DNA of 31,393 nucleotides from Planctomycetota bacterium (GTDB taxonomy: Bacteria > Planctomycetota > Brocadiia > JAADGH01): assembly GCA_013152475.1 (NCBI GenBank), contig JAADGH010000027.1, positions 608 through 32,000 of the forward strand, in the 5' to 3' direction. The notes under the pieces are model-generated. The model ran no database searches and was not told the origin of the DNA. It was given only the letters and a program-made list of their open reading frames with translations. The translations under genes were made by a program, and so were the position numbers. This document shows, one piece after another, positions 10,447 to 28,303 of the stretch (its first letter is position 1; each line of letters begins with the position of its first letter).

Positions 10447-10847
10447 CTATTCCTTGAGCGATCCGCATGCGGCCTCAAGCTCCCGCAATTTCTCGCTCAA
10501 TTTCTTCATTTCCGGAGCGTCCATGCCAATCGCATGAAGTTCCTGCCTCGCGCTCCTTGCCAAGTCCACAAACTTCCGTATCTCTTTCGGGTTGGTCGAT
10601 GACCAGGCTTTTCGAATTCTTTCGTTCGCGATGCGGCAAATCTCAGCCCTGGCGTAGTATCGACGCTTGAAGGCCCCTTGTCATAGACATCAGGGCCACA
10701 AAAGGAGTATTTGGCTTCGTAATCGCACGCTTGGGCATACCAATATGACTCAGTGCCGCCAACTCGCGCCTTCAGTCGACCGATCAAGCTAACGATGTCT
10801 GCCTGTATCATACCGATGTCTGGTCCTTCGGCTCTTGCTTTCGACAT
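10447..10847 (-). pseudogene. small hypothetical gene interrupted by a frameshift
   Basis: GGAGG lies 6 nt before the ATG (complement of 10845-10847). It reads MSKARAEGPDIGMIQADIVSLIGRLKARVGGTESYWYAQACDYEAKYSFCGPDVYDKG. A protein-like reading then continues only in another frame: FKRRYYARAEICRIANERIRKAWSSTNPKEIRKFVDLARSARQELHAIGMDAPEMKKLSEKLRELEAACGSLKE, with the stop at 10447-10449. Confidence 0.45.
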
Positions 10848-11349
10848 GGCATGCCTCCATCCGTTCAGGGGGAAATGGTTCCGCATACACTGTGACTACC
10901 GAGCGAATGTCGTGCCGAGTGCCCGGACCGTCAGAAAAGCCGAGACAAACCCTTGTGAGGCAGGCGAGTACGACAACGGTTTCGGGGAAAGAAAATTGAG
11001 TTCCGGCGTTGAGTTATCGATTGTTGGGGAACTGGAGAGTGGCGATGCCCAATTGCGATAAGCGTGCAAGTGGAAGATGGCAGCAAGCTTGGGGCAAGAA
11101 ACTGAATTTTGAGATGAAACGGCACGGGATATGATGCTTCGTTGCTTGCTGGCGGGGGCCGTCAGAGTAGGCATGGTACACAAGAAAAGGATTGCGCTAC
11201 CAAGCCGCAGCCTGTAACTTGGGTATGTCAGGCCAGCCAATTACAGAAACCCGTTGGTGGCGGCGTTCAGCATTGCGCGAGGCCGTAACCGTGGCGATGC
11301 GCATGGATCCTGCAAGGGTATCGAAAGCCCATGGAGAAGGAGGAAAATC

Positions 11350-11796
11350 ATGTCGGCAAAACCATTCGGACTGGCCATGAAGGCGTTCATCTACGATGAG
11401 GAAGGACGCTGTCTTCTTATCAGACGATCCATGAACTCAAAATTCTTCGCCGGCCAGTGGGATTTGCCGGGAGGCAAGGTGGATTCCGGCGAAGAATTCG
11501 ACGATGCCATGGCTCGGGAGGTGGCCGAAGAGACGGGCTTGACCATTACACTGGAAGGGGTTGCCGGAGCGAGTGAGCACGAACTGCCGCACATTCGTGT
11601 CGCGATCCTGTTCATGGAAGCGCGTGTTGCGTCGGGAGATGTCCAGTTGAGCAGTGAGCACGACGAATTCAGATGGGTATCACGGAAGGAACTCGGCAAC
11701 ATGGACATCTCCGATCAATTGAGTCCCTTTGTTTTGAGCTATCTTGAATCGAGCAATAAGTCGCAGATCATCTCGGACGAAAGGGGCCATGGATAA
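11350..11796 (+). CDS. NUDIX hydrolase
   Basis: Complete Nudix box GKVDSGEEFDDAMAREVAEETGL (GX5EX7REUXEEXGU). AAGGAGGA lies about 5 nt before the ATG at 11350. The track ORF from 11254 is an upstream extension. Confidence 0.9.
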   Translation: MSAKPFGLAMKAFIYDEEGRCLLIRRSMNSKFFAGQWDLPGGKVDSGEEFDDAMAREVAEETGLTITLEGVAGASEHELPHIRVAILFMEARVASGDVQLSSEHDEFRWVSRKELGNMDISDQLSPFVLSYLESSNKSQIISDERGHG

Positions 11797-11840
11797 TAGC
11801 TCTGAACAATAATTTGCCGGTTTTACAAAGGAGACATCCG

Positions 11841-14930: not shown

Positions 14931-16637
14931 TCACACCCCCTTCATCAACCAGTCCCGCTCGTGAAATACGGCGTCGAGGGCGCTGTCGAGATGGTCGTCA
15001 ATGATACTGCGCCAGTAGGTAACGGCATCGACGGGAACGGAGAACAGTAGGTCGTCGAAGTGGGAGAGTTTCTCGATCAGTCCTTCGAATATGCCGAAGG
15101 TGGACTTGCCGTGGAAGAGCAGCGGCTGCTGGCAGAGTCTTTCAAGTTCGAGCATGTGGTGGCGCATAGTCCTGTGGACATTCTTGAGCGCCTTGGGTTC
15201 TGTCTTGCTTTTGAGCACGCGCTGGAAGGCATTCCGAAAGGCCAAGATCAGGTCCTGCGCCTCAAGAAGGTGGCGCAGGCATTCGACGGCGTGCCGGCTT
15301 AGCTCATCGGCAGGCAGCTCGTCAGGCTCGATCGCTGCGGCCTGGCCCAGAAGGCGAAAGACCCCGCGCAAGTGTTTCGCGTTGAGACTATGTCTTGGGA
15401 CGATGTTGTGAAACACCGCATAGAGATGGGCAAGCACCGACTTCAATTCGCGTGCATTGCCGGGCCAGCGATAGGTTTGCAGTTCTGAGATGATGTCGGG
15501 GGGTAATGTCCAATTGCTGTTCCCTGTGATCTTTGCCCAGAATGCCTTGGCCAGCAAGGCCACATTTTCGGGGTTATCCTGGAGTCTCGGCGTGGAGATG
15601 ACGAACCATCGGAGGCGGTAGTACAAGTCTTCTCGAAACTGGCCGCTGTGAACCATGGACGGCAGATCGCGGTTGGTTGCGGCGATCACTCGAGCATTCA
15701 CAGGGGTCTCTTTCTGCTCACCAATTCTCCGGACCTTATGGTCCTGTATGGCACGCAATATCTTTGTTTGATGATCGAGCCTGAGTTCGCCAATCTCATC
15801 AAGGAACAGAATTCCATTCTGTGCGGACTGCCACAAGCCTACCTTATCCCTCGTCGCGCCGGTGAAGGCTCCCTTTATATAGCCGAATAGCTCCGATTCC
15901 AGCAGTTCGCTTGGAATGGCACCGCAGTTGACCGGTACGAAGGGCCCCCTTCTGAGCGGACCGAACGTGTGAATGCATTTTGCGACGAGCTCTTTGCCAG
16001 TGCCTGTATCGCCAAGGATGAGCACCGGGTTGTCGTCTTCTTTGGCGAGGACAATGAGTTTCCTAGCAAGTTCCACTTTTTTGCATGTGCCCACAAATCG
16101 TTCTGCAAGCGCCTTTGGGACCTCGACCTTGGCCAACAGAGAGATGGGCGACTCGTCTTTGCTCCCTGCCGGGTCATCCTGAAGGGCCTCCTTCCAGAGT
16201 TCCCGGAATTGATCTTCTGGAACAGCAATGAGGCAGGCCCGGAGCCGGTCGTTCCCTTCGGCCTTGGGATTAAGGAGGGCTTTGTCGGCTCTTTTAAGGA
16301 GGGCCTTTACGCCTCCCTTCAAATGCCCTGTTGTTCCGTATTTTGCGCGAATCAATCGAATTCCGTCTTGCCCCTTCAAAAGCCGGTAGAGCTCAATCTC
16401 TTCGTTTTGCACGCCTTTGTCGACAACAAGGTCATCGAGTTTTGTCAGTTGCTCAATGTCGATAGATGAGATGACGTAGGCCGTTGGCCGTTCCGGTGAG
16501 CACGCTTGCTTGAATGCTGTCTTAGTGTTCCATTCCGCTCTGCGGCATGCAAGATCTTTCTTTTTCGGTTCCTCGTCGGTTTTCGGCTCCCTGTTTGGAT
16601 CAAGAAAGAGCTCGACCGCACTTATGTTCATCTTCAT
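14931..16637 (-). CDS. sigma-54-dependent AAA+ transcriptional activator (bEBP) with unknown N- and C-terminal domains
   Basis: Walker A LILGDTGTGKELVAK. Sigma-54 contact loop YIKGAFTGA (GAFTGA). Walker B ILFLDEIGEL, then RVIAATNRDL, EDLYYRL, RWPGNARELKSV. GGAGGA RBS. No Fis-type HTH is recognisable in the ~150-aa C-terminus. Confidence 0.85.
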   Translation of the reverse strand: MKMNISAVELFLDPNREPKTDEEPKKKDLACRRAEWNTKTAFKQACSPERPTAYVISSIDIEQLTKLDDLVVDKGVQNEEIELYRLLKGQDGIRLIRAKYGTTGHLKGGVKALLKRADKALLNPKAEGNDRLRACLIAVPEDQFRELWKEALQDDPAGSKDESPISLLAKVEVPKALAERFVGTCKKVELARKLIVLAKEDDNPVLILGDTGTGKELVAKCIHTFGPLRRGPFVPVNCGAIPSELLESELFGYIKGAFTGATRDKVGLWQSAQNGILFLDEIGELRLDHQTKILRAIQDHKVRRIGEQKETPVNARVIAATNRDLPSMVHSGQFREDLYYRLRWFVISTPRLQDNPENVALLAKAFWAKITGNSNWTLPPDIISELQTYRWPGNARELKSVLAHLYAVFHNIVPRHSLNAKHLRGVFRLLGQAAAIEPDELPADELSRHAVECLRHLLEAQDLILAFRNAFQRVLKSKTEPKALKNVHRTMRHHMLELERLCQQPLLFHGKSTFGIFEGLIEKLSHFDDLLFSVPVDAVTYWRSIIDDHLDSALDAVFHERDWLMKGV

Positions 16638-16919
16638 GCCACGCTCCTCCGAGATTTCTCAGCGGTCCCCAGCTGTGAGTCCCTTTTAATGCTACTGTTG
16701 GCGTCAAACCGTGTCAACGATGAATTCGCTTTCTGTCTCAGCAATGGTTCACTCCCTGCGCCTTCTCAGCAGTTCCAGAGTAGCAGCGCAACTCAACGCC
16801 GTAGAGCCGAGGCTGAAGATAACTCAACCACAAGACTCAATTCTCTCTCGAGGACCTGACTGGACCTAAGCTGCGTGTCGGCAACGCCTTAGCAGAATTC
16901 TCCGATCCGTCGTTGAGCA

Positions 16920-16936
16920 TTGGCATAACTTGTGCA
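16920..16936 (+). promoter_or_regulatory. candidate sigma-54 (-24/-12) promoter
   Basis: TTGGCATAACTTGTGCA has GG (16922-16923) and GC (16934-16935) separated by exactly 10 nt, as in the TGGCAC-N5-TTGC consensus. There is one mismatch in each element. It lies about 70 nt upstream of the first operon gene (17007) and is divergent from the bEBP gene. Confidence 0.55.
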
Positions 16937-17006
16937 CATCCGGTCTGTCGTGAGACGGGGATCGTGGCGAGAGTTCAGGTCCCGGGAAACAAGGAAGTGA
17001 GACGAA

Positions 17007-17651
17007 ATGGTCATATGGATATTGGATCAATCAAGACACTGGAAACCTGTCGGGCTGAAAGACGGATTGATCAGCGTTGGCGTGAGCGATGGGCGAGCCG
17101 CCGTAGTGAGTCCAGATGAAGGCAATGCCGTGGCGTCGTTGATCCCTTACCAGGATCTCAATGGCCGCAGGCGCTGCTTTCTGATCTGCCGACGGGGTAG
17201 CCACGTGCGCTGCAAGGGCCTCCCTATTTTGGCGGGGGTACGGGTGCTTTCGGACAAAGATGAGATTGCGCTCGGCAACGGGCCGGAAGCGAGATTCTAC
17301 TATTCCCAGGAGTCCAAGCCGCAGATCGTGCCGTTCGAGGAGGGACCAAGGCCCACCTACTGCGCACGATCGAAGGCCAGGATCACCCAAGGCACTCCTG
17401 CGGTACAGTGCCCCTCGTGCGGGCTTTGGTACATCGAGACGGACGAGATGCCAGCGTACACCTACTGCGGGGAGCCCTGTGTGGGATGCGGGCGCCCGAC
17501 GACCACTGACTATTCGTGGGCGCCCGATCCCCTTCCCGCCCTACGACCAGAAGGCCAACGGTTATGGGAGAAGTGGTGTTCCCCCAGGACCATGAAACCG
17601 CAGGTGAGCAAACGGAGCAGTAAGGTGACTCCCGCAGCGGATTCGAGGTGA
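17007..17651 (+). CDS. hypothetical protein, FHA-like N-terminal domain plus CxxC...CxxC zinc ribbon
   Basis: LISVGVSDG...FLICRRGSHVRCKGLPILAGVRVLSDKDEIALGNGPEARFYY resembles the FHA strand pattern. C-terminal CPSCGLWY...YCGEPCVGCGRP. First gene after the sigma-54 promoter candidate. Confidence 0.6.
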   Translation: MVIWILDQSRHWKPVGLKDGLISVGVSDGRAAVVSPDEGNAVASLIPYQDLNGRRRCFLICRRGSHVRCKGLPILAGVRVLSDKDEIALGNGPEARFYYSQESKPQIVPFEEGPRPTYCARSKARITQGTPAVQCPSCGLWYIETDEMPAYTYCGEPCVGCGRPTTTDYSWAPDPLPALRPEGQRLWEKWCSPRTMKPQVSKRSSKVTPAADSR

Positions 17652-17657
17652 GACCAG

Positions 17658-18815
17658 ATGATTACACAGGAACGCTATTCGAGATTGAAAGCAATCTGGG
17701 GTGCACCCAATCTGTCTTGCCTCCGATCCAAGACCGTTATGGTCATCGGTTGTGGAAATCTCGGCGGGCAGATCATTCCGCACCTTGCGATGCTTGGCGT
17801 CGGTATGGTGCTTGTGGACCACGACCGGGTGAAAGCGCCGAACCTCGGGAATCAGGCGTTTGATGTGGCGCACATGGAAAAATCGAAGGTTTCCGGCCGT
17901 GAAGAGCAAGTGAAGAGGATCAACCCGGAGTGCAGAATCGAGACACTGGATGCGCGAGTTGAAGCCCTCGGTATGGGGGTGTTCCGAGATGTCGATATGG
18001 TGTTCTGCTGTTTGGACAATCTGGCCTCCCGTCTCTGGGTGAACGAGGCATGCCTTCGGTTGTCCGTGCCTTGGGTGGATGCCGCTCTGGATGGATCCGG
18101 CAAGACTACATATGCCAAGGTCGCCTGTTTTCCGAATACGGACGGGTCGGCCTGTTACCTCTGCTCGTGGGATGCGGACGCTCTGCAGGGGACTCTTCGC
18201 ACAGAAAATGGCGGATGCAAGTCCTGGTGGGACATCGGCAATGAAGATGCCCCTCCAACGCTGAGTTCATCGTGTCAAGCTGCAGTGGCGGCCGGCATTC
18301 AATGCGTTGCGGGACTTCGGATGCTGCTGGGCGATGGGGAAGCCGACTCCTCCCACGAGATCATCGTCAATCCAGAGGCAGGCTTCATGCGACGGGTGTG
18401 TCTGAAGGCGAATGTGGAGTCATGCATCGCGCCCCACGAGCCGTTCATGGATGTGGCAAGAGCGGGTGCTGGCCGCGCGTTGTCGGTCAACGACCTGTTC
18501 AGTCTGGCGGAGCGAAAGCTCGGCCCGGGTGTGGAGCTGGTCTTGCATGGGAGGGATTTGCTGACGACAGTCGATTGTGCAGCGTGCCAGAAAGGGAACG
18601 GTATCTGGCGGATGACCAATAACAGTGCGAAGAGCAAGATGACATGCCTGTGCGGAGCGCCGCTTACGCCGACTCCGCTGAGCGTGCTCAGGCAGATGGA
18701 CCGAGGCGCCGTGACGCCGATCCTGACACACACATGGGCGGAACTTGGATTGCCGCGGAAGGACATAGTCACCGCGAAGAAGAACGGTGCGAGTGTTCAC
18801 TTCCTCATCGAATAG
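17658..18815 (+). CDS. ThiF/MoeB-family E1-like adenylyltransferase
   Basis: RYSRL at the N-terminus. Rossmann VMVIGCGNLGGQIIPHLAMLGVGMVLVDHDRV. CCLDNLASRLWVNEAC (DN..R motif). Two CxxC pairs (CYLC, CAAC) as in the ThiF/MoeB zinc site. Only 6 nt after the previous gene. Confidence 0.85.
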   Translation: MITQERYSRLKAIWGAPNLSCLRSKTVMVIGCGNLGGQIIPHLAMLGVGMVLVDHDRVKAPNLGNQAFDVAHMEKSKVSGREEQVKRINPECRIETLDARVEALGMGVFRDVDMVFCCLDNLASRLWVNEACLRLSVPWVDAALDGSGKTTYAKVACFPNTDGSACYLCSWDADALQGTLRTENGGCKSWWDIGNEDAPPTLSSSCQAAVAAGIQCVAGLRMLLGDGEADSSHEIIVNPEAGFMRRVCLKANVESCIAPHEPFMDVARAGAGRALSVNDLFSLAERKLGPGVELVLHGRDLLTTVDCAACQKGNGIWRMTNNSAKSKMTCLCGAPLTPTPLSVLRQMDRGAVTPILTHTWAELGLPRKDIVTAKKNGASVHFLIE

Positions 18816-18828
18816 GAGCATCGACGAG

Positions 18829-19374
18829 ATGAAAGGCGAAGACAGCGTATTCAGGAAGTTCCTCGATAACAGCTACGACCGAGGACGCGAACTGGAACGG
18901 GAAAGTGATATCCTGCGAATCGAGGCGCGACGCGGGGAACCGCCGACGGGTTTTCTGTGCAGCTTTGTTGGTGTCGAACACTTGGTTCGAGATCCGGACG
19001 GCACGGTAGAGAAGTGCACAGACCCTATCCTGATCGAGGTGCAGTTCCCCCCGGACTACCTGAAGTCGTGCGATCCTCATCTGGGGCTGCGGGTTGTGGG
19101 GATGTTGAACCGGAACATCTTTCACCCCAACATCCGTCCCCCGGCAGTCTGTCTCGGGAATGCGCTCCGGCCCGGGACAACGCTCGACGAGATACTGAGG
19201 TACGTCTACGAGATTATCAGCTATCAGAACGTCACGCCGAACGAATCGGATGCATTCTCGGCAGAGGCGTGCCGTTACGTGAGAGAGCACCCGGGGGTGC
19301 TGAGCGGATTGCGCATTCCGCCTCTACGCAGGAGAAAGTTGAGGAACGTGACCACTACGGTGAGGTCGCTCTGA
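18829..19374 (+). CDS. E2-like ubiquitin-conjugating (UBC-fold) protein
   Basis: VQFPPDYL...NRNIFHPNIRPPAVCLG carries the HPN motif followed by Cys at the canonical E2 spacing. The track ORF from 18787 would overlap the E1 end. The ATG at 18829 is used here. Confidence 0.8.
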   Translation: MKGEDSVFRKFLDNSYDRGRELERESDILRIEARRGEPPTGFLCSFVGVEHLVRDPDGTVEKCTDPILIEVQFPPDYLKSCDPHLGLRVVGMLNRNIFHPNIRPPAVCLGNALRPGTTLDEILRYVYEIISYQNVTPNESDAFSAEACRYVREHPGVLSGLRIPPLRRRKLRNVTTTVRSL

Positions 19375-19391
19375 CGGGAGAAGTGGAAAAC

Positions 19392-20291
19392 ATGAACGAT
19401 GGAATTCACACACGTCTCTGGGGCCCAGGTACAGGAAGCCGCCCCCAGTCGCCTCTGGACAGGTTGGAGAAAGAGGTGAACGGATTTGTGAGGACACCGG
19501 ACGGTGCGGGCAGATTCGCCGTCGGAACCGCAGAGGTTGATGTGCGCCAGGACACGGAGCAGTGCCTGGTGCTCTCGGCCCCGCTCAGGAACGGATACGT
19601 CACGAAGATGGAGTTGTTGCGCCGTCAGCATTTCATCCAAGGTCCGTGCAAGTTCGCCGGCAATGGGCGGGGCAAGGTCCTGATCGCCGAGGCATTTCTG
19701 CGGCGTTCCAAAGAGCGGCTGATGGAGGCGTTCGAGGCGGCAACGGAGGGAATCGAGGCGGCAACACGCCTCGTTTCATGCAGCAACGCGAATTCCCAGG
19801 CGGCCCCCGGCTTCTTCCTGCGGGCAATCGACACGAAACAGAAAGACTTGGTGGAACGCTCGCTGGATGATCTCGGGGTGTCTGCGGCGCTTCGTGAAGA
19901 CGGCGTCTGGGCATGGTCTGTCGATACGAGCCGTCTACTGCATAGGATCCGGGTGAGGATTTCCGAAGGAAAGGAGAACTACTATGTTCATGTGGAAATC
20001 ACTGGCGACCCTTTGGGGACGCTTCTATCGACCGAGAGCCAAGAGGCCGTGGCCCGATTTGTTCTCGAAGCGAATCACAGCCTCCGTTTCGCTCGTTGCT
20101 CTGTGGCCGATGTTGAGAACGATTCCGGCCCCATGTTTCTTGCGGAGGCGGTCGTGCCGATAACCTTGTTCGACCATGAGCTGGCCAAGGCCATGATCGA
20201 CAGCGTTGTAGTGGCAGGGGAACAGGTTCGCGATGAAATCAACGCACTATGTCAGCCTGATGTCGCCCGCGCCTACCTCGGGATGCGGTGA
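19392..20291 (+). CDS. hypothetical protein (299 aa) embedded between E2 and Ubl genes
   Basis: Uninterrupted frame starting MNDGIHTRLW at the ATG at 19392, 17 nt after the E2 stop. The 444-aa track ORF from 18957 is an upstream extension through the E2 gene. No catalytic motif recognised. Confidence 0.65.
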   Translation: MNDGIHTRLWGPGTGSRPQSPLDRLEKEVNGFVRTPDGAGRFAVGTAEVDVRQDTEQCLVLSAPLRNGYVTKMELLRRQHFIQGPCKFAGNGRGKVLIAEAFLRRSKERLMEAFEAATEGIEAATRLVSCSNANSQAAPGFFLRAIDTKQKDLVERSLDDLGVSAALREDGVWAWSVDTSRLLHRIRVRISEGKENYYVHVEITGDPLGTLLSTESQEAVARFVLEANHSLRFARCSVADVENDSGPMFLAEAVVPITLFDHELAKAMIDSVVVAGEQVRDEINALCQPDVARAYLGMR

Positions 20292-20330
20292 TACTGGGTC
20301 TCGTGGAAAAATGGAAGGAGGTGAAGGAAT

Positions 20331-20597
20331 ATGGGAGAGCCAAGAGGGTTCATCAGATCATTGTCCGTGACGGATTGGAACCAACAGAAACGAGTGGATT
20401 TCGACGGGAAGATCGAACTGGACAGCTCTGTGGGAGAGATACTGAAGGAAGCGGTCCACAGGCTCGACCTGCCGCGGAACACGGCCTACAGCGCCGTCTT
20501 GGAGGGAAGAAAGCTGATCAACAGCGAAACCCTCGACAAGGCCGGCGTGAAAGAAGCCGACGAGATCATGGTCACCCCCGAGGTGACTGCCGGATGA
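20331..20597 (+). CDS. small ubiquitin-like (beta-grasp-sized) protein ending in Gly
   Basis: 88 aa, with a strong RBS (GGAAGGAGGTGAAGG) upstream. The C-terminus is ...MVTPEVTAG-stop, so a C-terminal Gly is exposed without processing. It sits between the E2 and JAB genes. Confidence 0.7.
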   Translation: MGEPRGFIRSLSVTDWNQQKRVDFDGKIELDSSVGEILKEAVHRLDLPRNTAYSAVLEGRKLINSETLDKAGVKEADEIMVTPEVTAG

Positions 20598-20744
20598 TCG
20601 GCAGGATCGATACGGCTACGGACCTCACGTTTCTTCAGTCTCGGCAGTGAGCCCCAAGCGCCGATGGCGGGCGAATATGGAGATGGCTGGGCTCCCGCGA
20701 AGGGGTAGCGGGAAGCTCCAGCCGGACAATAGGCATGTGATCGT

Positions 20745-21842
20745 ATGGAAAGGAAAGCTACGGTGAGTATTCCGGCAGCAGCGACCTCTCAGAACAAGTA
20801 CACGTTCACGCTTGAGTTGGCCGATCTGGAGCTGACCAAGATTTTGCACCGGGAGCCGCTCCAGGCCGTCTCCAGACTTGTCGAGCACTTCATTTTCGAG
20901 GTGCGATGCCGCGGACTCATTGATGACGGTGCGGAGGATCCCCCGTCCGAGGTGATCCCGGTCTGGTCGGGCGGTTCCGAAGGCCCGTTCGTCAATGGCA
21001 TCCGTGTGCGTCTCGACTTCAACGGAGACAAGGATGCTGTGGTGAAGGACTTCGGCATCACACACTTTGCCAGCCAAGCCCGTACCGTTGCGTCCAACCT
21101 GATTGTGCGCGGTGTGCTCAAGCAGGACGAGCGATTCCACTATCTGATCAGCGCGTTGCGCAGTGATGTGCAGACCGAAACGAGCGGCCAAGAGCCAAAA
21201 CGAGGATTCCACACCTCCGTTCGGACGCCGAGAATCGCGTTTCTCCCAACGCCTCTCGCCTCTCTGTCGTCCACTCTCGCCACAGATGAGGCGCAGGAGA
21301 AATTCTTGGATGTCTTGATTCCCAGGGTGGTCGCCGACGAGATCCTTGGGCGTGTCGAGCAGTCCAATGAAGACGAATTGGGCGGATTCCTGATAGGCAA
21401 CCTTTGTCGCGATCCATCGTCCGGTCGGGCATTTGTGCTGGTGAACGCGCAGGTTGAGGCCCGCGAAGGGACCGAAGCGACGTGCACGAGCTTCAAGTTC
21501 ACCGACCGAACATTCCTGGCGGCATCTCACTGTCTCCAATCGCGACGGCGAAAGGGCGAGCGCATCGTGGGCTGGTACCATAGCCATGTGTTCTGCAGGA
21601 AGTGCGAGAAGCGGAACACATGTGACGTCGGCACCGTGTTCTGGTCGCAGAGCGACCAGACGGTACACGAGTCGGCATTCCCACACCCCTACCAGTTCGG
21701 TTTGGTGGTGGGCTACGGTGGCGGCGCCAAGAACACCGGAAACGGCCCATACGCATTTAAGTTGTACGGTTGGCGGGACTGCATGATTACCGAACGACCG
21801 GTCACCATAGTGAATGGAGTGGATGATGGTGAAGCAGAATAA
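20745..21842 (+). CDS. JAB/MPN (JAMM) metallopeptidase with ~190-aa N-terminal extension
   Basis: JAMM elements are present: EDELGGFLIG (Glu), GWYHSH (HxH), WSQSD (SxxD). A Cys-rich insert FCRKCEKRNTCD lies between HxH and SxxD. Confidence 0.8.
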   Translation: MERKATVSIPAAATSQNKYTFTLELADLELTKILHREPLQAVSRLVEHFIFEVRCRGLIDDGAEDPPSEVIPVWSGGSEGPFVNGIRVRLDFNGDKDAVVKDFGITHFASQARTVASNLIVRGVLKQDERFHYLISALRSDVQTETSGQEPKRGFHTSVRTPRIAFLPTPLASLSSTLATDEAQEKFLDVLIPRVVADEILGRVEQSNEDELGGFLIGNLCRDPSSGRAFVLVNAQVEAREGTEATCTSFKFTDRTFLAASHCLQSRRRKGERIVGWYHSHVFCRKCEKRNTCDVGTVFWSQSDQTVHESAFPHPYQFGLVVGYGGGAKNTGNGPYAFKLYGWRDCMITERPVTIVNGVDDGEAE

Positions 21843-23520
21843 AGACGAAGACATCCTGAAGGTGCTGCTGGGTGAGGAGCTTCCGGCAGCGGAAGAAGAC
21901 AGCCGGCTGGAGAGGCTCCTCAGCGGTGATCCGCCGAAGGGCGTTCTGGTGGAGATGTTGCTGCGCGCCACCAACCAGAAGCGCAAGCTCGAGTTGGGCC
22001 TCCAGGAGGCAAAGAAGCTGGATCAAAAGAAGAGCAAGTTGATCCAGGAGTTGACGGCTCTTCCGTGGTATCCGGCGAAGTTTGTCAGGCGATGCGACAA
22101 CATGCCCGGGAAGGTCTATGTTTCTGTGGGTCACAGCGAGATGCTCGTCGGCTGCGCCAACGGGATTCGCCCGGATGAGCTGCGTCACAGCCAAACGGTT
22201 CTCCTGTCGCACGAGAGGAACTGTATCGTCGGCGTCGATGACTGCCCTTCGCGCTTTGGCGATATCGGCACGGTGGATCGTGTGCTGGGGGAACAGGCCA
22301 TTCTGAAAATCAATGAAGCCGAGGAGATTCGCGTGGGTCTCTCCGATGAACTGCGGGCGGACCCACCGAAGACGGGAGACCGGGTGATATACGACCGAGG
22401 CCTGCTTCTCGCTTTGGAGATTCTTCCCAAGCAAGAGGAGGAGAGCTCTATTCTGGAGGACGTTGACAGCTCGATCAGCTTCGACATGATTGGCGGACTG
22501 GATGACGTAATCGATCAGATCCTCGAAGACGTGGCCCTCCATCTGTTCCACCGTGACCTGGTGCGGGAGCATCGGCTCCGCCCTTCAAAAGGCATTATCC
22601 TGGCGGGACCGCCTGGGGTAGGGAAGACGATGATTGGGAAAGCGCTTGGCACGTTTCTGAAGTCACAGGCGGTCACATCCGGGGAAGTGAAGTTCTGCGC
22701 CCTCCCCCCGGGATCGTTCCGGTCACACTATTATGGGATGACGGAGCAGCGAATCCGGCAGGTTTTTCGGGTCTGCAGGGATTTCTCGAAACGCAAAGAC
22801 GGCAACCGATGCATTCTCTTCTGTGACGAACTCGATACATGGGGGCGTCGCTCCGCAGACGTCACGAACAGCGTGGATTCGAGGGTGCTGACGTGCTTCC
22901 TGAGCGAAGTGGATGGGCTTGATGAGACCGGAAACATCTTTCTCATTGGGGCGACAAACCGGGCGGACGATCTTGTGGATTCCGCCCTTATGCGGCCCGG
23001 GCGCTTTGGCGACAATATCCTTCGCATCCCCCGTCCCGGACGCGAAGCAATCCGCGACATCTTCGGGAAGTATCTCACCCCCGACCTGCCCTTCAGGCGC
23101 AACGGACACCGGGCGTCGCAGGCGGAAGCCGCCGAGATTGCGGCCGAAATCATCGATGCCGCAACATCGAGAATCTTCCGCGCCAATGATGACGCGAGGA
23201 TTGCCACGTTGATCATGCGTGATGGGTCGCGGCGCGACGTTCATGCCCGGGAGATCATATCGGGGGCCATGTGTGAGAATATCGTCCGCCGCGCGAAGGT
23301 GAGATCGTGTGTGCGTGGACTTGCGGAAGAAACGGGCATCACGCCGGCCGACGTGATCGAGGCAGTGGACGACGAAGTGACCTCGGCGGCACGCTCTCTC
23401 CGATCTCCGAGCAATGCCAGGGCGGTGCTCGGCTTGAGTAGTGACAACGATATTGTGCGCGTGGAGTTTCCTTCGGATGGCGCCGAGCACATTCGCCCTC
23501 ATCGTTATGTTCGAGCGTGA
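21814..23520 (+). CDS. Mpa/ARC/PAN-like AAA+ unfoldase (coiled coil - OB-like - classical AAA)
   Basis: Coiled coil NQKRKLELGLQEAKKLDQKKSKLIQEL, then a beta-rich segment. Walker A ILAGPPGVGKT, pore loop HYYG, Walker B ILFCDELD, sensor LIGATNR, RPGRFG box. Overlaps the JAB stop by 29 nt, with alternative ATGs at 21823 and 21826. Confidence 0.85.
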   Translation: MEWMMVKQNKDEDILKVLLGEELPAAEEDSRLERLLSGDPPKGVLVEMLLRATNQKRKLELGLQEAKKLDQKKSKLIQELTALPWYPAKFVRRCDNMPGKVYVSVGHSEMLVGCANGIRPDELRHSQTVLLSHERNCIVGVDDCPSRFGDIGTVDRVLGEQAILKINEAEEIRVGLSDELRADPPKTGDRVIYDRGLLLALEILPKQEEESSILEDVDSSISFDMIGGLDDVIDQILEDVALHLFHRDLVREHRLRPSKGIILAGPPGVGKTMIGKALGTFLKSQAVTSGEVKFCALPPGSFRSHYYGMTEQRIRQVFRVCRDFSKRKDGNRCILFCDELDTWGRRSADVTNSVDSRVLTCFLSEVDGLDETGNIFLIGATNRADDLVDSALMRPGRFGDNILRIPRPGREAIRDIFGKYLTPDLPFRRNGHRASQAEAAEIAAEIIDAATSRIFRANDDARIATLIMRDGSRRDVHAREIISGAMCENIVRRAKVRSCVRGLAEETGITPADVIEAVDDEVTSAARSLRSPSNARAVLGLSSDNDIVRVEFPSDGAEHIRPHRYVRA

Positions 23521-23547
23521 AGCGACCGAAGAAAGGCAGGAATTCCG

Positions 23548-25254
23548 ATGGCAGTCAAGAAGATCACCGGCGCCGACATCGAGTTTGGCAACAGCATCGT
23601 GGGCCGAAAGTCAGGTTCCCAAAGCACGTCATATGAAGCGTGTCAATATCTCTTGAATGAGGTGGATGGGATCGCACCGCTTTCGGGATGGCGCAATAAT
23701 GTGGGATTCTACCAGACGCATTACGCCACATGCGGGACGGAATTGCCCAATAGCGGGGTATGGGGGAATGCCACCAATGCCCACACACAAGGCAGCGCCT
23801 ACAACTATCGCGACTACGGGCGAAAGTGGCGCAACTACTGCATCTATGGTGACTTGGGCCATTGTGAAGGCTGCCTACCAGAGACCACATCGGCCTTCGA
23901 CCACGTTGCCGCCCTCCACGGCCTCTACAATCTGGTCGAGAATCTCATGAGGCAGGCCAACGAGAAACTCCCCGACGGACAAGAGTTGTTTGTAACGGCG
24001 AATAACTCGGATGGGTCCAGGGTGTCGAGTTGGGGGGCACATTTCAATGTGCTGATCACGCGCAACTTGCGGAGACAGATTTTCACGCGAAAACCTCACA
24101 AGCTTGGAATGCTTGCGTCATTCTTCGCTTCCTCGGCGCCGCTCTTCGGCCAGGGCCATGTATTGAGGCGGAGGGACGGCAAGTCGAAGTTCGTTCTGTC
24201 CTCCCGGGCCCATCAGACCGGCGTTCTGGTCGATCCCTCTACGACCGTCCCGTTTCGCCGTCCGATTGTGAACTCCCGGGACGAACGGCACGCCTCAGAA
24301 GACCTGGCGCGCCTGCACATCATCTGCTACGACGCCAATCTGCAGCAGATAGGAACGCTGCTGAGGGTGTGGCTTACCCAAGCTTTCCTCGCCGCCATGG
24401 AGGAGGGATTCTTCGACTCGAAACTGCTGCTGGATGATCCTGTGGCGGCCTTCCGCTGCTGGTCAGGAGGGTTCTCGGTCACTACGGGCAGAATCGAGAG
24501 GAAATGCCGTTTGGCCTTTGGGGGGAAGATATCGCCCGTTGAGTGGTTCATGGCCCTGACGGAGGCACTGGTGAACATGCACGACGCCGGTCTGCTTCCG
24601 GAGGAGATCGTTCCGGACACAGATCGGATACTGCCAATCTGGATTGACTCGCTCCGGAAATTCGCGGAAGGCAACGTGACCGCCCTTGCGAAGCGCTTCG
24701 ATTGGGCTCTGAAGCTGACGATCCTGGACCGTCAAATGTCGGAGCATGGCTTCGACCTGCAGTCGCCGGAAGCCGCGCTCCTGAACCAGATGTACGCTCA
24801 TATAGACAAGGAACGAGGTCTGTACTTCGCCCTGGAGAAGGCCGGTTTTCTGGAGACCGCCGTACGCCCCCAGAGAATCGCGTTCATGCAGGCAAACGGC
24901 CCTATGGATACGAGGGCCTTCGCCAGGAAGTCAATCATTGAGAAGTTCTCGGATAACATTCGGCGAATCGACTGGGGGAAAATCACGTTGGAGATTCCCA
25001 GCAACAACGGCTGGGGGAGTCGGAAGACAATACTCCTCGACCATCCCGGTCACTACACTCAAGCGGAGGTCGGACAACTGATTGAGGAGTGCCGCACAGT
25101 AGAGGACCTCTGCAGAGCCATGGAAACGCATGATCCGAACACTGTGCGGTCGTCGTCCCTTGTGGTGCGGGACTGCGGCAGCGTAGAACCCGGATGTTGC
25201 GGCACTGAAACGCAGTGGCCTAACAGGGGAGAACAGGAGACCCAGAGGAAATGA
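23548..25254 (+). CDS. Pup-ligase/Dop family (PafA-like) protein 1
   Basis: Three segments match my recollection of M. tuberculosis PafA:
- KKITGADIEFG (cf. PafA RIMGIETEFG).
- ANNSDGSRVSSWGAHFNVL (cf. KNNTDSAGNSYGCHENYL).
- RPIVNSRDERHA..LARLHIICYDANLQQIGTLL (cf. RPIINTRDEPHA..RRLHVIVGDSNMSETTTML). Confidence 0.8.
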   Translation: MAVKKITGADIEFGNSIVGRKSGSQSTSYEACQYLLNEVDGIAPLSGWRNNVGFYQTHYATCGTELPNSGVWGNATNAHTQGSAYNYRDYGRKWRNYCIYGDLGHCEGCLPETTSAFDHVAALHGLYNLVENLMRQANEKLPDGQELFVTANNSDGSRVSSWGAHFNVLITRNLRRQIFTRKPHKLGMLASFFASSAPLFGQGHVLRRRDGKSKFVLSSRAHQTGVLVDPSTTVPFRRPIVNSRDERHASEDLARLHIICYDANLQQIGTLLRVWLTQAFLAAMEEGFFDSKLLLDDPVAAFRCWSGGFSVTTGRIERKCRLAFGGKISPVEWFMALTEALVNMHDAGLLPEEIVPDTDRILPIWIDSLRKFAEGNVTALAKRFDWALKLTILDRQMSEHGFDLQSPEAALLNQMYAHIDKERGLYFALEKAGFLETAVRPQRIAFMQANGPMDTRAFARKSIIEKFSDNIRRIDWGKITLEIPSNNGWGSRKTILLDHPGHYTQAEVGQLIEECRTVEDLCRAMETHDPNTVRSSSLVVRDCGSVEPGCCGTETQWPNRGEQETQRK

Positions 25255-25300
25255 GCAGTGACCTGACGCGGAAGATGGACCCGATTGACGAAAGGAGCAC

Positions 25301-25516
25301 ATGATGAGTGGCGAAAGAGAAATATTCCGTCGTCGTCCAGGAAGCAACGATCCAAACGATGAATTGAATGGCCCAGATGCCGAGCGACTTCAGAATGCAA
25401 GGAACCAAGCTGGGGATTTTGACTCGGTTATCGGGCGGGCCCTTGCGTCTTTGCGAAACCAGAAGAACTCGGCAGAGAACATCCTGAAGTCCATAAGAAA
25501 CCCGGGCGGAGAATAA
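25301..25516 (+). CDS. Pup-like small protein modifier ending in GGE
   Basis: 71 aa, with AAAGGAG 3-6 nt before ATGATG. Polar and low-complexity N-half. The C-terminus NSAENILKSIRNPGGE-stop resembles M. tuberculosis Pup ENAEDFVRAYVQKGGQ, with the AE at the same distance from the end. The stop lies 1 nt before the next start. Confidence 0.7.
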   Translation: MMSGEREIFRRRPGSNDPNDELNGPDAERLQNARNQAGDFDSVIGRALASLRNQKNSAENILKSIRNPGGE

Positions 25517-25517
25517 G

Positions 25518-27098
25518 ATGGAAGAAGAAGTATTCATCCTGGGTTCGGAGCATGAACTGGCGGCGGCGATGTTTCCACCTCACGGCGGGCTGGGGCACAT
25601 CAGCAACGATATTGCTCACGAAGTGATCCAGCGGGAACTAAAGAGCTCCGGCGTTCCGTATCTGTTCGATACCTCTCGATCGGGCTTGTTCCTCTACCTC
25701 GGTCGGATCTACATGGACCCGACGGGACACCACGTGGAATTTGCCGTCTGTCCGGCAGGGTCGCCGCACGAAGTCGTTCAAACCGAGGCGAAGATGATCC
25801 GTCTGTTGCGCGACGCTATACGGTGGGTGCAAGTGCACTTGTCCGGCTTTGCGCTTGTTCACAACAACTACGATTACATTACGCACTCTACGTGGGGCCA
25901 GCACTGCAACTATGCCATCCAGGTGCCGCTTGATGCCCTCGAACGGGCGCTCGTCCCTTTCCTTGTTACCCGCCAGGTCTTCGCCGGGCCCGGTTCGGTT
26001 GGATGCAACGACCACGGGATGGACCTGAATCCAAGGACGCACTTCATATCGCGCACAACCGGGGGCGAGACGACGAGCAGTCGGAGCATCTATTCCACCG
26101 CACGGAATGAGCCCTTGATGGTGTCCTCCCGCTTCCATCACCGGCTCCACCTCATTTCCGGATGCTCGCTTATGAGCCAATTCGGACAATGGCTGAAGCT
26201 GGGCACTACCGCTTTGGTGATCCGGGCGGCGGAAAAGGATCCGACCATCGGCGATGCGGTTGCCTTTGCAGATCCCGTCCGTGCGATAAAGACGCTGAGC
26301 GTCTTAACTCCGGACCGGAAACATCTCTTCGATCCGCACTTGCTGAAGGTGCAGAAACACTATGTTCGAGTTGTAGCGGACATGCTCCAGGAAGGTGATT
26401 TTCCGAAGTGGTGCTTCGATATCTGGAGAGCGTGGCACGATACCCTCAAAAGACTCGAAAGCGATCCGATGGCACTGGATCGTCGGCTGGACCCATACAT
26501 CAAACTCAGACTATTCGGCCGCTTCCTGCAGGAACGAGGAAAACGGTGGCACCACGTGAGCGAAGACGAAAGCCTCTACTACGATCTCGCGTTGCTGGAT
26601 GTCCGATACCACGCCCTCTCTGGCGGTTTGTTCGAGATGCTGGATGCAGAAGGCGTGCTCGAACACAAGCTTGTGTCGGATAGGGAAGCAACGCCCGGCA
26701 GCGAGGATGATCCATATGTGCTCACCGGCCTGCCAAGGGAATCCTTCAGGGGGCGAATGATCAAGAAGCTGAATGGGCGGTCGCAGTTCCGCTGCGATTG
26801 GCAGCATATCACTGACATGGAGCGGAGGCAATATCTGGAGATGCACGACCCTTTGGAAACGCCCCGGGGGCGATGGCAGCGGATGATGACGAGAGAACAA
26901 GATGCTTTTCGCATCTCTCTCGTTTCAGAAGGAGAGCTGCGTTCACCGTCTCGGCGAGCAGGCCCCCCGCCATCGGGCCGGACACCTCGTGATAGTCTTC
27001 CCCGAGTCATTAGAGAGCTGCTGGAGGCACGCGAACACGAACTCGATGAGGTGCGACTGAGGGCGCGTCAACAGGCGCGAGAACGCCCCGGGCAGTAG
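25518..27098 (+). CDS. Pup-ligase/Dop family (PafA/Dop-like) protein 2
   Basis: FILGSEHEL, RIYMDPTGHHVEFA (cf. RLYLDVGSHPEYA), STWGQHCNYA, LVPFLVTRQVFAGPG (cf. LLPFLVTRQLICGAG), HRLHLISGCSLMSQFGQWLKLGTTALVIRAAE (cf. [31 protein letters not shown]). Confidence 0.8.
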   Translation: MEEEVFILGSEHELAAAMFPPHGGLGHISNDIAHEVIQRELKSSGVPYLFDTSRSGLFLYLGRIYMDPTGHHVEFAVCPAGSPHEVVQTEAKMIRLLRDAIRWVQVHLSGFALVHNNYDYITHSTWGQHCNYAIQVPLDALERALVPFLVTRQVFAGPGSVGCNDHGMDLNPRTHFISRTTGGETTSSRSIYSTARNEPLMVSSRFHHRLHLISGCSLMSQFGQWLKLGTTALVIRAAEKDPTIGDAVAFADPVRAIKTLSVLTPDRKHLFDPHLLKVQKHYVRVVADMLQEGDFPKWCFDIWRAWHDTLKRLESDPMALDRRLDPYIKLRLFGRFLQERGKRWHHVSEDESLYYDLALLDVRYHALSGGLFEMLDAEGVLEHKLVSDREATPGSEDDPYVLTGLPRESFRGRMIKKLNGRSQFRCDWQHITDMERRQYLEMHDPLETPRGRWQRMMTREQDAFRISLVSEGELRSPSRRAGPPPSGRTPRDSLPRVIRELLEAREHELDEVRLRARQQARERPGQ

Positions 27099-27151
27099 AG
27101 CACAAACGGGGATGACATCCCCTTCTGAGGAGTTGCGGAAACGGAGCAGGA

Positions 27152-28303
27152 ATGGATCTCGACGATGTTCTCATGAGGGAACTGAAGGGACAAGGGGTGA
27201 AGCTCGACGCCCGCGATCGAGACACCCTCATCCTCTACGGTGTCCCCGTGAGCGCACAATACAGCAAGTCCCATGTCAACCTGCTCGTCAAACGGTCACG
27301 AGAAAAGCTGTTTTTCTGTTTTGCCGATCAGGATTTGGCGTATCAGGGGCAAGATCCGGCTATATGTCGCTTGTTCGGCGGTGAAGGGGTCAAGCGCGAA
27401 GGCTGGCGATGTCTCTTTGCAGACCATTCAGATCGTACGTTCCAGGGGGCGGTTGAGCGTGCGTTGTCCATCCTGGGGTTTTTGGCAGAGCCACGTCTTC
27501 CTCCTCCCAACGTACATGCACAAGGCGGCTGCCAACTGCTGAACGCCTTCGCCAGGGACCTTTCCGGAGAAATCCGGGAAGGCATGGCGGAGCCGACAGT
27601 CGGTCGAGAGAAAACGGTCGCGGAGGTTACCATGTGCCTGCGGCGCATGGGAGGGGCCAAACTCGTGATCGTTGCCGGCCCGCCGGGCGTCGGCAAGACG
27701 AACCTATGCAGCGCAGTCGCGGCTCGACTTGCGGAATGTTGCCCGACCCTTGCCATGTGGTCGGTGGATCTCGGCCTCCTCTTCGCCGGGACACTCTTCG
27801 ACGCGGAACGGGAGGGCCTATTGATGAATCTCCTGAGTGAGACGATCGAGAACAACGGAACCGGCCTCGTTCTTGCGATGGAACATCTGGAACTGACGCT
27901 TCGTTCCCCATGTGGTCCGGATATTCTGACCCACGCGTTGAACTCCAACGCAAGGATCGTCGGGGTCACAACGGCCGAGCACCTGCGTCATATCCCCCCT
28001 GCGTTGGCCAGGCGCGCGCACGTGATCGAGCTTGCCGGTCTGTCACCGACCCAGACGCTCGGAGTGCTGAGAGCCCATGCGGAAAGGTTGGCAAAGCATC
28101 ATGGGGTGCAGATTCCTGACGCGTGCCTGCCTGCATGCGTCAAAGCGGTCCAAGAGCTGCCAGGCAACCTGCCGGCCAAGGCCTTGCTCATACTGGACAC
28201 GGCAGCCGCCAACGTGGCGCTGTCGAGTGCCGGAGTGGTTAGCGTGGACGACATCTACTTCGCCGCAAGGCTCTGCGAGAAGAGCGCGGAACGCCTTCCC
28301 TGA
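27152..28303 (+). CDS. ClpA/ClpB D1-like single AAA+ module with unknown (possibly E2/UEV-like) N-terminal domain
   Basis: GREKTVAEVTMCLRR...LVIVAGPPGVGKTNL (Walker A). VDLGLLFAGTLFDAEREGLLMNLLSE (cf. Clp LDxxxLxAGxxxRGEFEERL). RIVGVTTAEHLRHI..PALARRAHVIEL (cf. IGATTxxEYR...ALxRRFQxV). HHGVQIPDACL...LPAKALLILDTAAA (cf. LPDKAIDLLDEA). The Walker B position reads LVLAMEHL. Confidence 0.7.
   Translation: MDLDDVLMRELKGQGVKLDARDRDTLILYGVPVSAQYSKSHVNLLVKRSREKLFFCFADQDLAYQGQDPAICRLFGGEGVKREGWRCLFADHSDRTFQGAVERALSILGFLAEPRLPPPNVHAQGGCQLLNAFARDLSGEIREGMAEPTVGREKTVAEVTMCLRRMGGAKLVIVAGPPGVGKTNLCSAVAARLAECCPTLAMWSVDLGLLFAGTLFDAEREGLLMNLLSETIENNGTGLVLAMEHLELTLRSPCGPDILTHALNSNARIVGVTTAEHLRHIPPALARRAHVIELAGLSPTQTLGVLRAHAERLAKHHGVQIPDACLPACVKAVQELPGNLPAKALLILDTAAANVALSSAGVVSVDDIYFAARLCEKSAERLP

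Follow-up and report, generated by a model that had tools for sequence, protein, structure and literature searches.

The gene lying divergently from an 11-gene conjugation operon in this Planctomycetota genome probably encodes a sigma-54 enhancer-binding activator (P0001) of a distinct, horizontally moving family. The arrangement of the locus points to an enhancer-dependent sigma-54 switch, in which the activator, targeted to conserved boxes in the intergenic region, would turn the operon on; we consider this reading, assignment and mechanism together, to be likely. The operon (17007..28303, plus strand; Pfam and NCBIfam) combines E1/E2/Ubl/JAB functions with Mpa/PafA-like ones, and includes genes for an FHA-like/Zn-ribbon protein, a ThiF-type E1, a JAB protein, an Mpa-like AAA+ protein, two PafA/Dop-like proteins and an AAA+ protein. 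Transcription from a sigma-54 promoter does not start in the absence of the activator, so that such promoters are ideally suited to locking operons that are harmful if leaky.

Domain make-up of the divergent activator

The activator gene (14931..16637, minus strand; open reading frame and translation) codes for a protein of 568 aa. The Pfam profile Sigma54_activat (PF00158) matched residues 183-347 with an E-value of 1.2e-61 and 207.7 bits (cut-off 20.2), covering positions 3-167 of the 168 in the profile, and AAA_lid_14 matched residues 357-411. The AAA+ sigma-54 interaction domain and its lid occupy residues 183-411 (15405..16091, minus strand), and the translation contains an intact GAFTGA loop (residues 256-261, 15855..15872), a Walker A motif GDTGTGKE (residues 209-216, 15990-16013) and a Walker B motif LFLDEIG (residues 277-283, 15789-15809), all on the minus strand. 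Reading frame, Pfam match and motifs agree with the first-pass annotation, which had described a 568-aa AAA+ activator with an intact GAFTGA loop divergent from the operon. The best NCBIfam matches of P0001 were all bacterial enhancer-binding proteins (bEBPs), covered the AAA+ core only and each fell below the equivalog cut-off. The rpoN gene, whose presence in the genome had been proposed as a check, was found (G000:C208:635-2029); it scores 423.3 bits, the cut-off being 277.35, and has an open frame of 490 aa. For the activator gene itself, a sigma-70 scan gave a putative promoter TTGACA-17-TAGCAT (16689..16717, minus strand, 10/12), one site against about 0.9 expected in shuffled sequences, which is weak on its own.

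The absence of a Fis-type HTH, which the same annotation had noted, was borne out by several approaches. The C-terminal 164 aa of P0001 gave no Pfam match at E <= 10, the alignment by hhalign of the family C-domain with an HTH_8 profile built from the genome's own activators gave a probability of 0.3%, and sequence and profile searches of the PDB with the C-domain found nothing. Among the 22 strong activators of the genome, P0001 is the sole one without HTH_8, the other 21 serving as a control. The AF2 model (pLDDT 84.7) predicted for residues 443-567 (14937..15311, minus strand) a bundle of four helices of 21-34 residues each, with the conserved motif H-x-V-E-C-L-R-H-L; by this model the bundle replaces the usual HTH domain, and it sits C-terminal in all of 111 representative clusters. 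Foldseek matches of the C-domain to the ligand-binding domains of the Tar/Tsr chemoreceptors (TM 0.5-0.58, E > 0.25) were set aside as generic four-helix bundles and not homology. The family motif HRVECLRHLRR reads HAVECLRHLLE in P0001, several conserved basic residues being replaced.

The N-terminal domain (residues 1-160, 16158..16637, minus strand) was modelled with a pLDDT of 80 as a beta-hairpin and an alpha/beta fold carrying the motif D-R/K-G, which is kept across the activator family. The N-terminal 200 aa had no Pfam match at E <= 10, the domain had no sequence match in the PDB, and its model gave no Foldseek match in the PDB with E < 0.1 and no CARF structure among the results. The fold check for a CARF/SAVED-like sensor, suggested earlier, gave a four-helix bundle for the helical C-terminus, and no CARF and no known relative for the N-domain, which is presumably the signal input. 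The modelled protein has three parts: an N-domain of novel alpha/beta fold, the AAA+ domain with its GAFTGA loop, and the four-helix bundle at the C-terminus.

Promoter and boxes upstream of the operon

The intergenic region (16638-17006) is 369 bp long. The -24/-12 pattern and a position weight matrix (PWM) identified in it a predicted sigma-54 promoter, TGGCATAACTTGTGCA (16921..16936, plus strand), with the -24 GG at 16922-16923 and the -12 GC at 16934-16935. In its slightly longer form TTGGCATAACTTGTGCA (16920-16936), the spacing between GG and GC is exactly N10 and the end lies 70 nt before the ATG at 17007, in line with the GG-N10-GC geometry about 70 nt before the first gene that the first-pass annotation had reported. 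The predicted transcription start is near 16946-16948, and a ribosome-binding site AAGGAAG (16991..16997, plus strand), read from the sequence, stands 9 nt before the ATG. The pattern TGGCAYN6TGCW had a single match on both strands of the window (the whole 31.4-kb stretch of DNA analysed), which is this promoter, against a shuffle mean of 0.25. An ad hoc score equal to or above that of TGGCATAACTTGTGCA occurs at 0.036 per kb-strand genome-wide, or about 0.013 expected in this region and orientation. The proposed PWM check, performed with a matrix trained on the genome's own best -24/-12 sites, placed the site at rank 42 of the 106,446 GG-N10-GC sites of the 6.5-Mb genome (19.2 bits), the site itself being probably part of the training set. 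The promoter departs from the consensus at -21, -20 and -15. Relatives have near-identical promoters after their boxes, TGGCATAACGGTTGCA (L177) and TGGCATGAACTGTGCT (L036), with the shared start TGGCATAAC. No sigma-70-like promoter toward the operon was found in the intergenic region by a scan that is simple and insensitive. The presence of rpoN, the high rank of the promoter, this lack of a sigma-70-like site and the recurrence of the link in other phyla support, at the level of sequence, a predicted sigma-54 control of the operon.

About 95 nt upstream of the promoter lies an array of two exact and one degenerate copies of AACTCAAC, all on the plus strand. Box 1 (16790..16797), a putative distal enhancer element, is separated by 31 nt (three helical turns) from box 2 (16821..16828), which stands 93 nt before the promoter, both being found by motif match; the degenerate box GACTCAAT (16834..16841), read from the sequence, follows 13 nt after box 2. 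This 13-nt spacing recurs in L004, in L039 and in a second unit of the window. There, a pair on the minus strand found by motif match (10995..11015), composed of AACTCAAC at 11015-11008 and AACTCAAT at 11002-10995, is followed 77 nt downstream by a weak -24/-12-like element, CGGCACGACATTCGCT (10902..10917, minus strand; rank 824 with the genome PWM), which precedes an orphan ORF (10506-10886). The CGGCACG-N4-TCGC form of this element is also seen after boxes in L176 and L190. In the whole genome, only four pairs of ACTCAAC no more than 80 nt apart exist; three of them are non-coding and front conflict-type operons, namely the tagging operon and two DUF4062-NACHT units on contig C200, whose pairs share the 30-31-nt box spacing with the operon's pair. 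The same boxes before the C200 DUF4062-NACHT genes and before the orphan ORF suggest a small regulon of conflict genes under the control of this one activator. The boxes were rejected by eye as IHF sites, having no WATCAAN4TTR context, and also as a MITE or other repeat: their flanks, copy number, orientation and spacing vary and the 8-mer is constant.

Distribution of the activator family, boxes and operon

The family consists of activators of about 560 aa and was analysed at 29 loci in several phyla; within the phylum of P0001, a full-length member was found in G133 only, of 400 genomes. Metagenomes were searched with the narrower C-domain alignment A5, the diverse alignment A4 having no sufficiently conserved stretch. 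An unbiased k-mer count in 3,938 nt of non-coding flanks from 10 family loci placed AACTCAAC at the top; its 17 copies, spread over 8 loci, compare with an expectation of 0.12. Over the 29 loci, boxes within 500 nt of the activator gene reach 2.51 per kb and elsewhere 0.15 per kb, a 17-fold difference; one or more boxes are present in 23 loci, two or more in 19. Ordinary activators, taken as a control (28 loci, 102 kb), gave three copies, which is the chance level. Of 21 loci with clustered boxes, 14 have a correctly oriented -24/-12 element at 15-220 nt downstream of them, about 1.7 loci being expected from a background of 0.2 per kb-strand. The box spacings, about 13, 23 and 31-33 nt, are compatible with one helix face, and many loci have an inverted pair, GTTGAGT-N32-ACTCAAC, directly at the activator gene's 5' end. 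Two family loci (L002 and L040) have neither boxes nor promoter, and several box-bearing loci (L035, L039, L178 and C200:7493) have no canonical -24/-12 site. A genome scan for three boxes with AACTCAAC returned 120 places, of which one (L060) is beside a family activator, unrelated tandem repeats being also matched; by itself the motif thus lacks specificity.

The GAFTGA loop varies in many family members, for example to YTFTDA or GAHSTA, so that part of the family may not act via sigma-54. In a kinase-fused variant, P0134, the N-domain is replaced and both the loop and the Walker B motif are degenerate; since neither boxes nor -24/-12 sites were found near its gene, this locus is uninformative on which domain binds the boxes. 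The neighbour genes of the family code for STAND/NACHT, TIR, MoxR, ClpB-like and RyR proteins, and RelA/SpoT-SLOG-RyR, NUDIX and TIR genes often adjoin the activators. Literature searches on sigma-54 control of defence systems and on the box motif found nothing relevant. The association of activator family, motif and promoter type beside immune-like clusters in several phyla suggests a mobile, inducible on-switch.

The gene order of the conjugation operon is conserved in four other genomes (G063, G053, G083 and G133). In G133, a family activator again lies ahead of the operon, together with two boxes and a -24/-12-like site; upstream of the copies in G063, G053 and G083, neither a sigma-54 site nor an activator was found. 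The control module therefore appears portable and is not intrinsic to the conjugation operon.

Proposed switch, alternatives and known systems

In the mechanism that we propose, the activator would be produced from its own sigma-70-type promoter and recruited to the AACTCAAC array (16790-16841), most probably by binding directly through a domain other than HTH_8. A signal at the N-domain would lead to assembly of the active ring, the ATP-driven ring would open the closed E-sigma54 complex at TGGCATAACTTGTGCA, about 95 bp downstream of the boxes, and the open complex would switch on the 11-gene ubiquitin-like/Pup-like conjugation operon, which would stay silent without the activator. The lack of an HTH does not make the activator enhancer-less, because a conserved AACTCAAC array stands upstream of the promoter; this array indicates that P0001 is very probably targeted to DNA by a not-yet-recognised domain. 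As no domain of P0001 resembles a known DNA-binding fold, direct binding to the boxes is argued from their co-occurrence with the activator. A more detailed version can be offered tentatively, as a possibility that we would not favour over its negation. The four-helix C-domain (less likely the N-domain) might be a new sequence-specific DNA-binding module reading AACTCAAC, the whole acting as a portable, ligand-gated sigma-54 switch that places NLR-like (DUF4062/NIR-NACHT), TIR, MoxR and ubiquitin-like/Pup-like operons in one regulon, with a nucleotide signal from the adjoining RelA/SpoT-SLOG-RyR, NUDIX and TIR genes as possible trigger.

The main alternative, which we regard as unlikely, is an activator devoid of DNA-binding function that acts from solution or via a partner, as do FlgR and CtcC, the boxes serving another factor or auto-regulation. 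A review (PMC7175178) establishes group 5 for activators that lack a D domain, a known DNA-binding fold is absent from both flanking domains, and the position of the inverted box pair would also suit auto-regulation. However, the activator is the only gene common to all box-bearing loci, the boxes are not placed at random and stand at enhancer distance upstream of -24/-12 sites, and the family keeps a conserved 125-aa C-domain at the position of the D domain, whereas group-5 activators stop soon after the AAA+ domain.

It is still less probable that the -24/-12 match arose by chance, with the operon transcribed in a sigma-70 manner from an unrecognised promoter and the activator regulating something else or only itself. 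The chance of such an ad hoc score in the 369-bp region, about 1 in 75, is not negligible for one locus, the sigma-70 scan would easily miss a site, and the three operon copies with neither sigma-54 site nor activator upstream imply that the operon can be expressed in other ways. Against this stand the genomic rank of the promoter, the recurrence of the box and promoter combination in 14 of 21 loci and also upstream of the same operon in G133, and the near-identical TGGCATAAC... promoters that follow boxes in L177 and L036. We find it very improbable that P0001 is no transcription factor at all and is an AAA+ component of the conflict system, for example a sensor or a protein remodeller, recruited from the activator lineage. 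The loss of the canonical loop in part of the family, the degenerate P0134 with no boxes or sigma-54 sites near it, and neighbourhoods rich in other AAA+/STAND ATPases would fit such a role, but P0001 retains GAFTGA and matches the sigma-54 interaction domain over its full length, and remodelling of proteins would not account for conserved DNA boxes and -24/-12 sites next to the gene.

If the enhancer-dependent switch is true, a mobile activator with its own enhancer motif and promoter type would mean that part of bacterial immunity, comprising NLR-like, TIR and protein-tagging operons, is transcriptionally induced and does not stand ready, this induction being built on enhancer-dependent transcription. 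It would provide a simple sequence signature, AACTCAAC arrays with a -24/-12 site after them, by which regulated genes could be located in any genome. The odd ubiquitin-like/Pup-like operon would become testable, as an N-terminally truncated activator should turn it on at will; such truncation makes many activators constitutive. The activator also offers two uncharacterised domains, one probably a new fold that reads DNA, the other probably a new sensor.

With classical bEBPs (NtrC, NtrC1, NorR and PspF; PF00158 and HTH_8), P0001 shares the AAA+ domain with GAFTGA, the layout of input domain, ATPase and C-terminal domain, the repeated upstream sites at enhancer distance from -24/-12 and the divergent arrangement of activator and target; NorR likewise uses three sites (PMC2831303). 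It differs from them by its 125-aa C-terminal bundle of four long helices in place of a Fis-type HTH, by an N-domain that is none of REC, GAF, PAS, V4R and ACT, by a motif AACTCAAC that is kept across phyla and is not regulator-specific, and by targets that are conflict or immune-like operons and not metabolic or stress genes. RtcR (CARF-AAA+-HTH, with the rtcBA RNA-repair operon) is likewise a sigma-54 activator divergent from an operon related to stress or defence; its sensor domain is not phosphorylated and is believed to recognise a ligand of nucleotide type. The two resemble each other in the AAA+ core (NCBIfam RtcR, 244.7 bits; PADLOC RtcR_PspF2, 279 bits), but only this core of P0001 aligns: residues 176-418 pair with positions 164-410 of a profile of 481, and the RtcR profiles of PADLOC and NCBIfam begin to align at residue 176/192 of P0001. 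Unlike RtcR, P0001 has no CARF, HTH or rtcBA genes, its neighbours being E1/JAB/PafA-like genes with no rtcB or rtcA, and its 244.7 bits compare with an RtcR cut-off of 650; the comparison with RtcR-type control made by the first-pass annotation is thus only an analogy.

Group-5 activators without a D domain include FlgR (Helicobacter) and CtcC (Chlamydia), FleT lacking both R and D (PMC7175178). Like P0001, FlgR and CtcC have no HTH_8, and sigma-54 activation without a canonical D domain therefore exists (PMC7175178). These proteins have a receiver domain, end after the AAA+ domain and use no enhancers, whereas P0001 has another N-domain, with no Pfam match to a receiver domain (Response_reg), a conserved 125-aa domain after the AAA+ lid and an enhancer-like array.

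The WYL-type regulators of defence islands, CapW, BrxR and PafBC, are sigma-70 repressors or activators with wHTH-WYL domains. As with the family described here, a dedicated regulator adjoins and moves with varied immune operons that are presumably off until a signal arrives; in contrast to them, P0001 is predicted to be an ATP-driven sigma-54 activator, a mechanism that by itself would keep basal expression very low.

The activator and its flanking domains

The activator gene (14931-16637, minus strand) codes for a protein of 568 aa, with a Walker A motif at residues 209-216, a GAFTGA loop at residues 256-261 and a Walker B motif at residues 277-283. ORF translation and these motif positions agree with the 568-aa length and the intact loop reported in the first-pass annotation, whose coordinates and sequence statements were all correct on re-reading. 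Pfam assigned a sigma-54 interaction domain (residues 183-347, E 1.2e-61) and an AAA lid (residues 357-411), with no further domain, and neither the N-terminal 200 aa nor the C-terminal 164 aa gave a Pfam match, even at E <= 10.

The earlier statement that the protein carries no Fis-type HTH was borne out. The window's own genome, G000, contains 22 strong sigma-54 activators, and a genome search with HTH_8, as positive control, located this domain 300-450 nt downstream of the AAA+ domain in the other 21, the window activator being the sole one without it. A profile made from 20 HTH_8 domains of G000 activators matched the C-domain profile of the activator family with a probability of 0.3% by hhalign, and the full-length family profile with 1.5%. 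The C-terminus had been described as helical, and an AlphaFold2 model from an alignment of 35 sequences indeed predicts four long antiparallel helices for residues 443-567, with pLDDT >90 over most of the bundle. Its Foldseek matches were generic four-helix bundles only (designed proteins, Tar/Tsr ligand-binding domains; TM 0.5-0.58, E > 0.25). The N-domain was modelled as a beta-hairpin and a small alpha/beta domain (pLDDT 80). It had no structural match with E < 0.1 and no sequence match among solved structures; the first-pass annotation had likewise left it unassigned.

The window activator belongs to a large family, its members of ~560 aa aligning over the whole length at 38-45% identity and coming from Acidobacteriota, Gemmatimonadota, Thermodesulfobacteriota and others; HTH_8 was found in none of these ~560-aa members. 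The C-domain alone retrieved 111 representative clusters, with a C-terminal position in all. Within the window's phylum, a full-length member was found in one of 400 sampled genomes (G133), a patchy presence consistent with horizontal spread. The GAFTGA loop varies in many members (YTFTDA, GAHSTA, GSFTGA, GAYTHA), and YTFTDA or GAHSTA/GSHSTA replaces it across large clades (L181, L191). Some of the H-S loop variants still adjoin boxes as well as good -24/-12 sites; this is surprising if the Phe is indispensable to sigma-54 contact. The N-domain is replaced in one variant only, the 827-aa P0134 (L195, 333-2816), where a Zn-ribbon and a Ser/Thr kinase precede the retained AAA+ and C-domain. In P0134 both the loop and Walker B are degenerate; its neighbours are a TIR gene (CAP12/PCTIR) and another family-like activator, and no boxes or sigma-54 sites were found at its locus.

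Predicted operon promoter and boxes in the window's genome

Activator gene and operon (start 17007, plus strand) are separated by 369 bp. The GG-N10-GC site claimed in this region was confirmed from the sequence: TTGGCATAACTTGTGCA (16920-16936, plus strand) has this geometry, with 70 nt between its end and the ATG. The pattern TGGCAYN6TGCW matched this site alone in the entire window, both strands included (0.25 matches in shuffles). By an ad hoc consensus score, 469 sites of G000 scored at least as high (0.036 per kb-strand), so that ~0.013 would be expected by chance in the intergenic region in this orientation. The best G000 sites are canonical TGGCACG-N4-TTGCW, several of them adjoining other activator genes; TGTGC(A/T), the -12 variant of the operon promoter, is common among them. 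A PWM scoring, suggested in the first-pass annotation, was done with a matrix trained iteratively on G000's own top sites (training set of 80); the operon promoter ranked 42 of 106,446 GG-N10-GC sites (19.2 bits versus 25.6 for the top), a rank slightly flattering since the site is probably in its own training set. The genome was also found to encode an intact rpoN, a point recommended for checking. A consensus scan showed no sigma-70-type promoter toward the operon and one toward the activator gene, TTGACA-17-TAGCAT (16717->16689, minus strand).

Three boxes, AACTCAAC at 16790-16797 and 16821-16828 and GACTCAAT at 16834-16841, form an array 93 nt before the operon promoter. The heptamer ACTCAAC is rare in G000 (258 copies in 6.5 Mb), and four pairs lie <= 80 nt apart versus ~0.8 expected, one being that of the window. 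Two others are on contig C200 (locus L161; 7493-7530 and 13249-13287), with the 30-31 nt spacing of the window; both are non-coding, located before DUF4062-NACHT-WD40 and DUF4062-NACHT-TPR genes and beside an 854-aa RyR-domain protein. One is followed after ~90 nt by TGGATCAAGATTTGCA, a weak site (PWM rank 1111), and no canonical -24/-12 site was seen at the other. These pairs are probably further targets of the window activator. The fourth pair, on contig C63, looks coding and is probably due to chance.

A second unit of the window (10902-11015, minus strand) appears enhancer-like: AACTCAAC (11015-11008) and, 13 nt from it, AACTCAAT (11002-10995) are followed after 77 nt by the promoter-like CGGCACGACATTCGCT (10917-10902), with an orphan 126-aa ORF of no family downstream (10506-10886, minus strand). 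CGGCACGACATTCGCT is weak by the general PWM (rank 824); its CGGCACG-N4-TCGC form, with the odd -12 TCGC, also follows boxes in G133, L190.

Boxes and gene neighbourhoods across the family

The upstream regions of -24/-12 sites in six loci, printed side by side, had AACTCAAC in common, and an unbiased 6-, 7- and 8-mer count in the non-coding flanks of the activator gene at 10 loci (3,938 nt) gave it as the top word (17 copies in 8 loci versus 0.12 expected), all runner-up words overlapping it. The motif was written GTTGAGTT for an HTH-less activator beside DUF4062-NACHT genes in another genome. Among 18 further metagenome loci retrieved via the C-domain, 15 had boxes no more than a few hundred nt from an end of the gene, gene starts there being approximate; the other three are short fragments. 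Over 29 loci, box density was 2.51 per kb at distances up to 500 nt from the gene and 0.15 per kb elsewhere, and a correctly oriented -24/-12-like site lay 15-220 nt downstream of clustered boxes at 14 of 21 loci (~1.7 expected at background density), locus counts overstating independence as L182-184 are mutually related. L060 likewise has such a site downstream of its boxes. As negative control, 28 ordinary-activator loci (102 kb) contained three box copies, the chance level. An A precedes ACTCAAC in 58 of 67 copies, box spacings cluster at ~13, 23 and 31-33 nt, i.e. whole helical turns, and GTTGAGT-N32-ACTCAAC, an inverted pair, is found repeatedly at the activator gene 5' end. Promoters closely like that of the window are TGGCATAACGGTTGCA in L177, TGGCATGAACTGTGCT in L036 and TGGCATGCTCGGTGCA in L182.

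At L036 (12722-13084), a second box cluster (12913, 12943) lies between two -24/-12-like sites that point away from it, one to a TIR-NB-ARC gene and one to a small gene, and looks like a bidirectional enhancer. L040, a locus without boxes, carries two strong -24/-12-like motifs, TGGCACAGAAGCTGCA and TGGCACAACGGCTGCT (8381-8396 and 8458-8473, 77 nt apart), on the coding strand inside the activator's own coding region.

The neighbourhoods of 11 family members on long contigs comprise MoxR-type AAA_5 operons, ClpB-like AAA_2 operons, DUF4062-NACHT/AAA_16-TPR/WD40 STAND proteins, TIR-NB-ARC and CHAT proteins, and TrkA_N + RyR with NUDIX + RelA/SpoT-RyR, this last set being also present in the window as a trio (8168-14537). 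Near the family, RyR-domain proteins occur either by themselves or as fusions with TrkA_N or RelA/SpoT, in six or more independent contexts (the window trio; L036, L037, L039, L178; C200 13368-15932), and at L036 the TrkA_N + RyR pair is itself under a divergent sigma-54 promoter.

The conjugation operon (FHA-like/Zn-ribbon, E1, JAB, Mpa-like and two PafA-like genes) is conserved in four other genomes, G063, G053, G083 and G133, with a family activator in G133 only. There, the activator is co-directional with the operon, a TIR gene lying between, and two boxes are followed 55 nt on by a -24/-12-like site just before the first operon gene. Upstream of the operon in G063, G053 and G083 (L170, L171, L172), no activator, boxes or sigma-54 site were found; operon regulation therefore differs between genomes, and the regulatory module is a portable addition rather than a constituent of the operon.

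Proposed switch and comparison with known activators

The most economical reading of these sequences is an enhancer-dependent switch of the classical kind in which both flanking domains are unorthodox. In it, the AAA+ core with its GAFTGA loop would contact sigma-54, the boxes would serve as enhancer, the C-domain would read them and the N-domain would be the input. The C-domain, which occupies the D-domain position and varies least outside the ATPase, is the likeliest, putative box reader. A nucleotide ligand as signal is an attractive guess, since RelA/SpoT-SLOG-RyR, NUDIX and TIR genes recur near the family.

In the literature we found neither the box motif described nor any case of sigma-54 governing STAND, TIR or ubiquitin-like defence operons. 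The PADLOC profiles for RtcR/PspF CARF-AAA-HTH proteins aligned with the window activator in its AAA+ core only, to which the likeness is confined. Of the five activator groups described, only group 5 (FlgR, CtcC) has no D domain; in the other four this domain is of HTH type (PMC7175178). The present family differs from those four in being without HTH, and fits neither the HTH-type description nor that of group 5.
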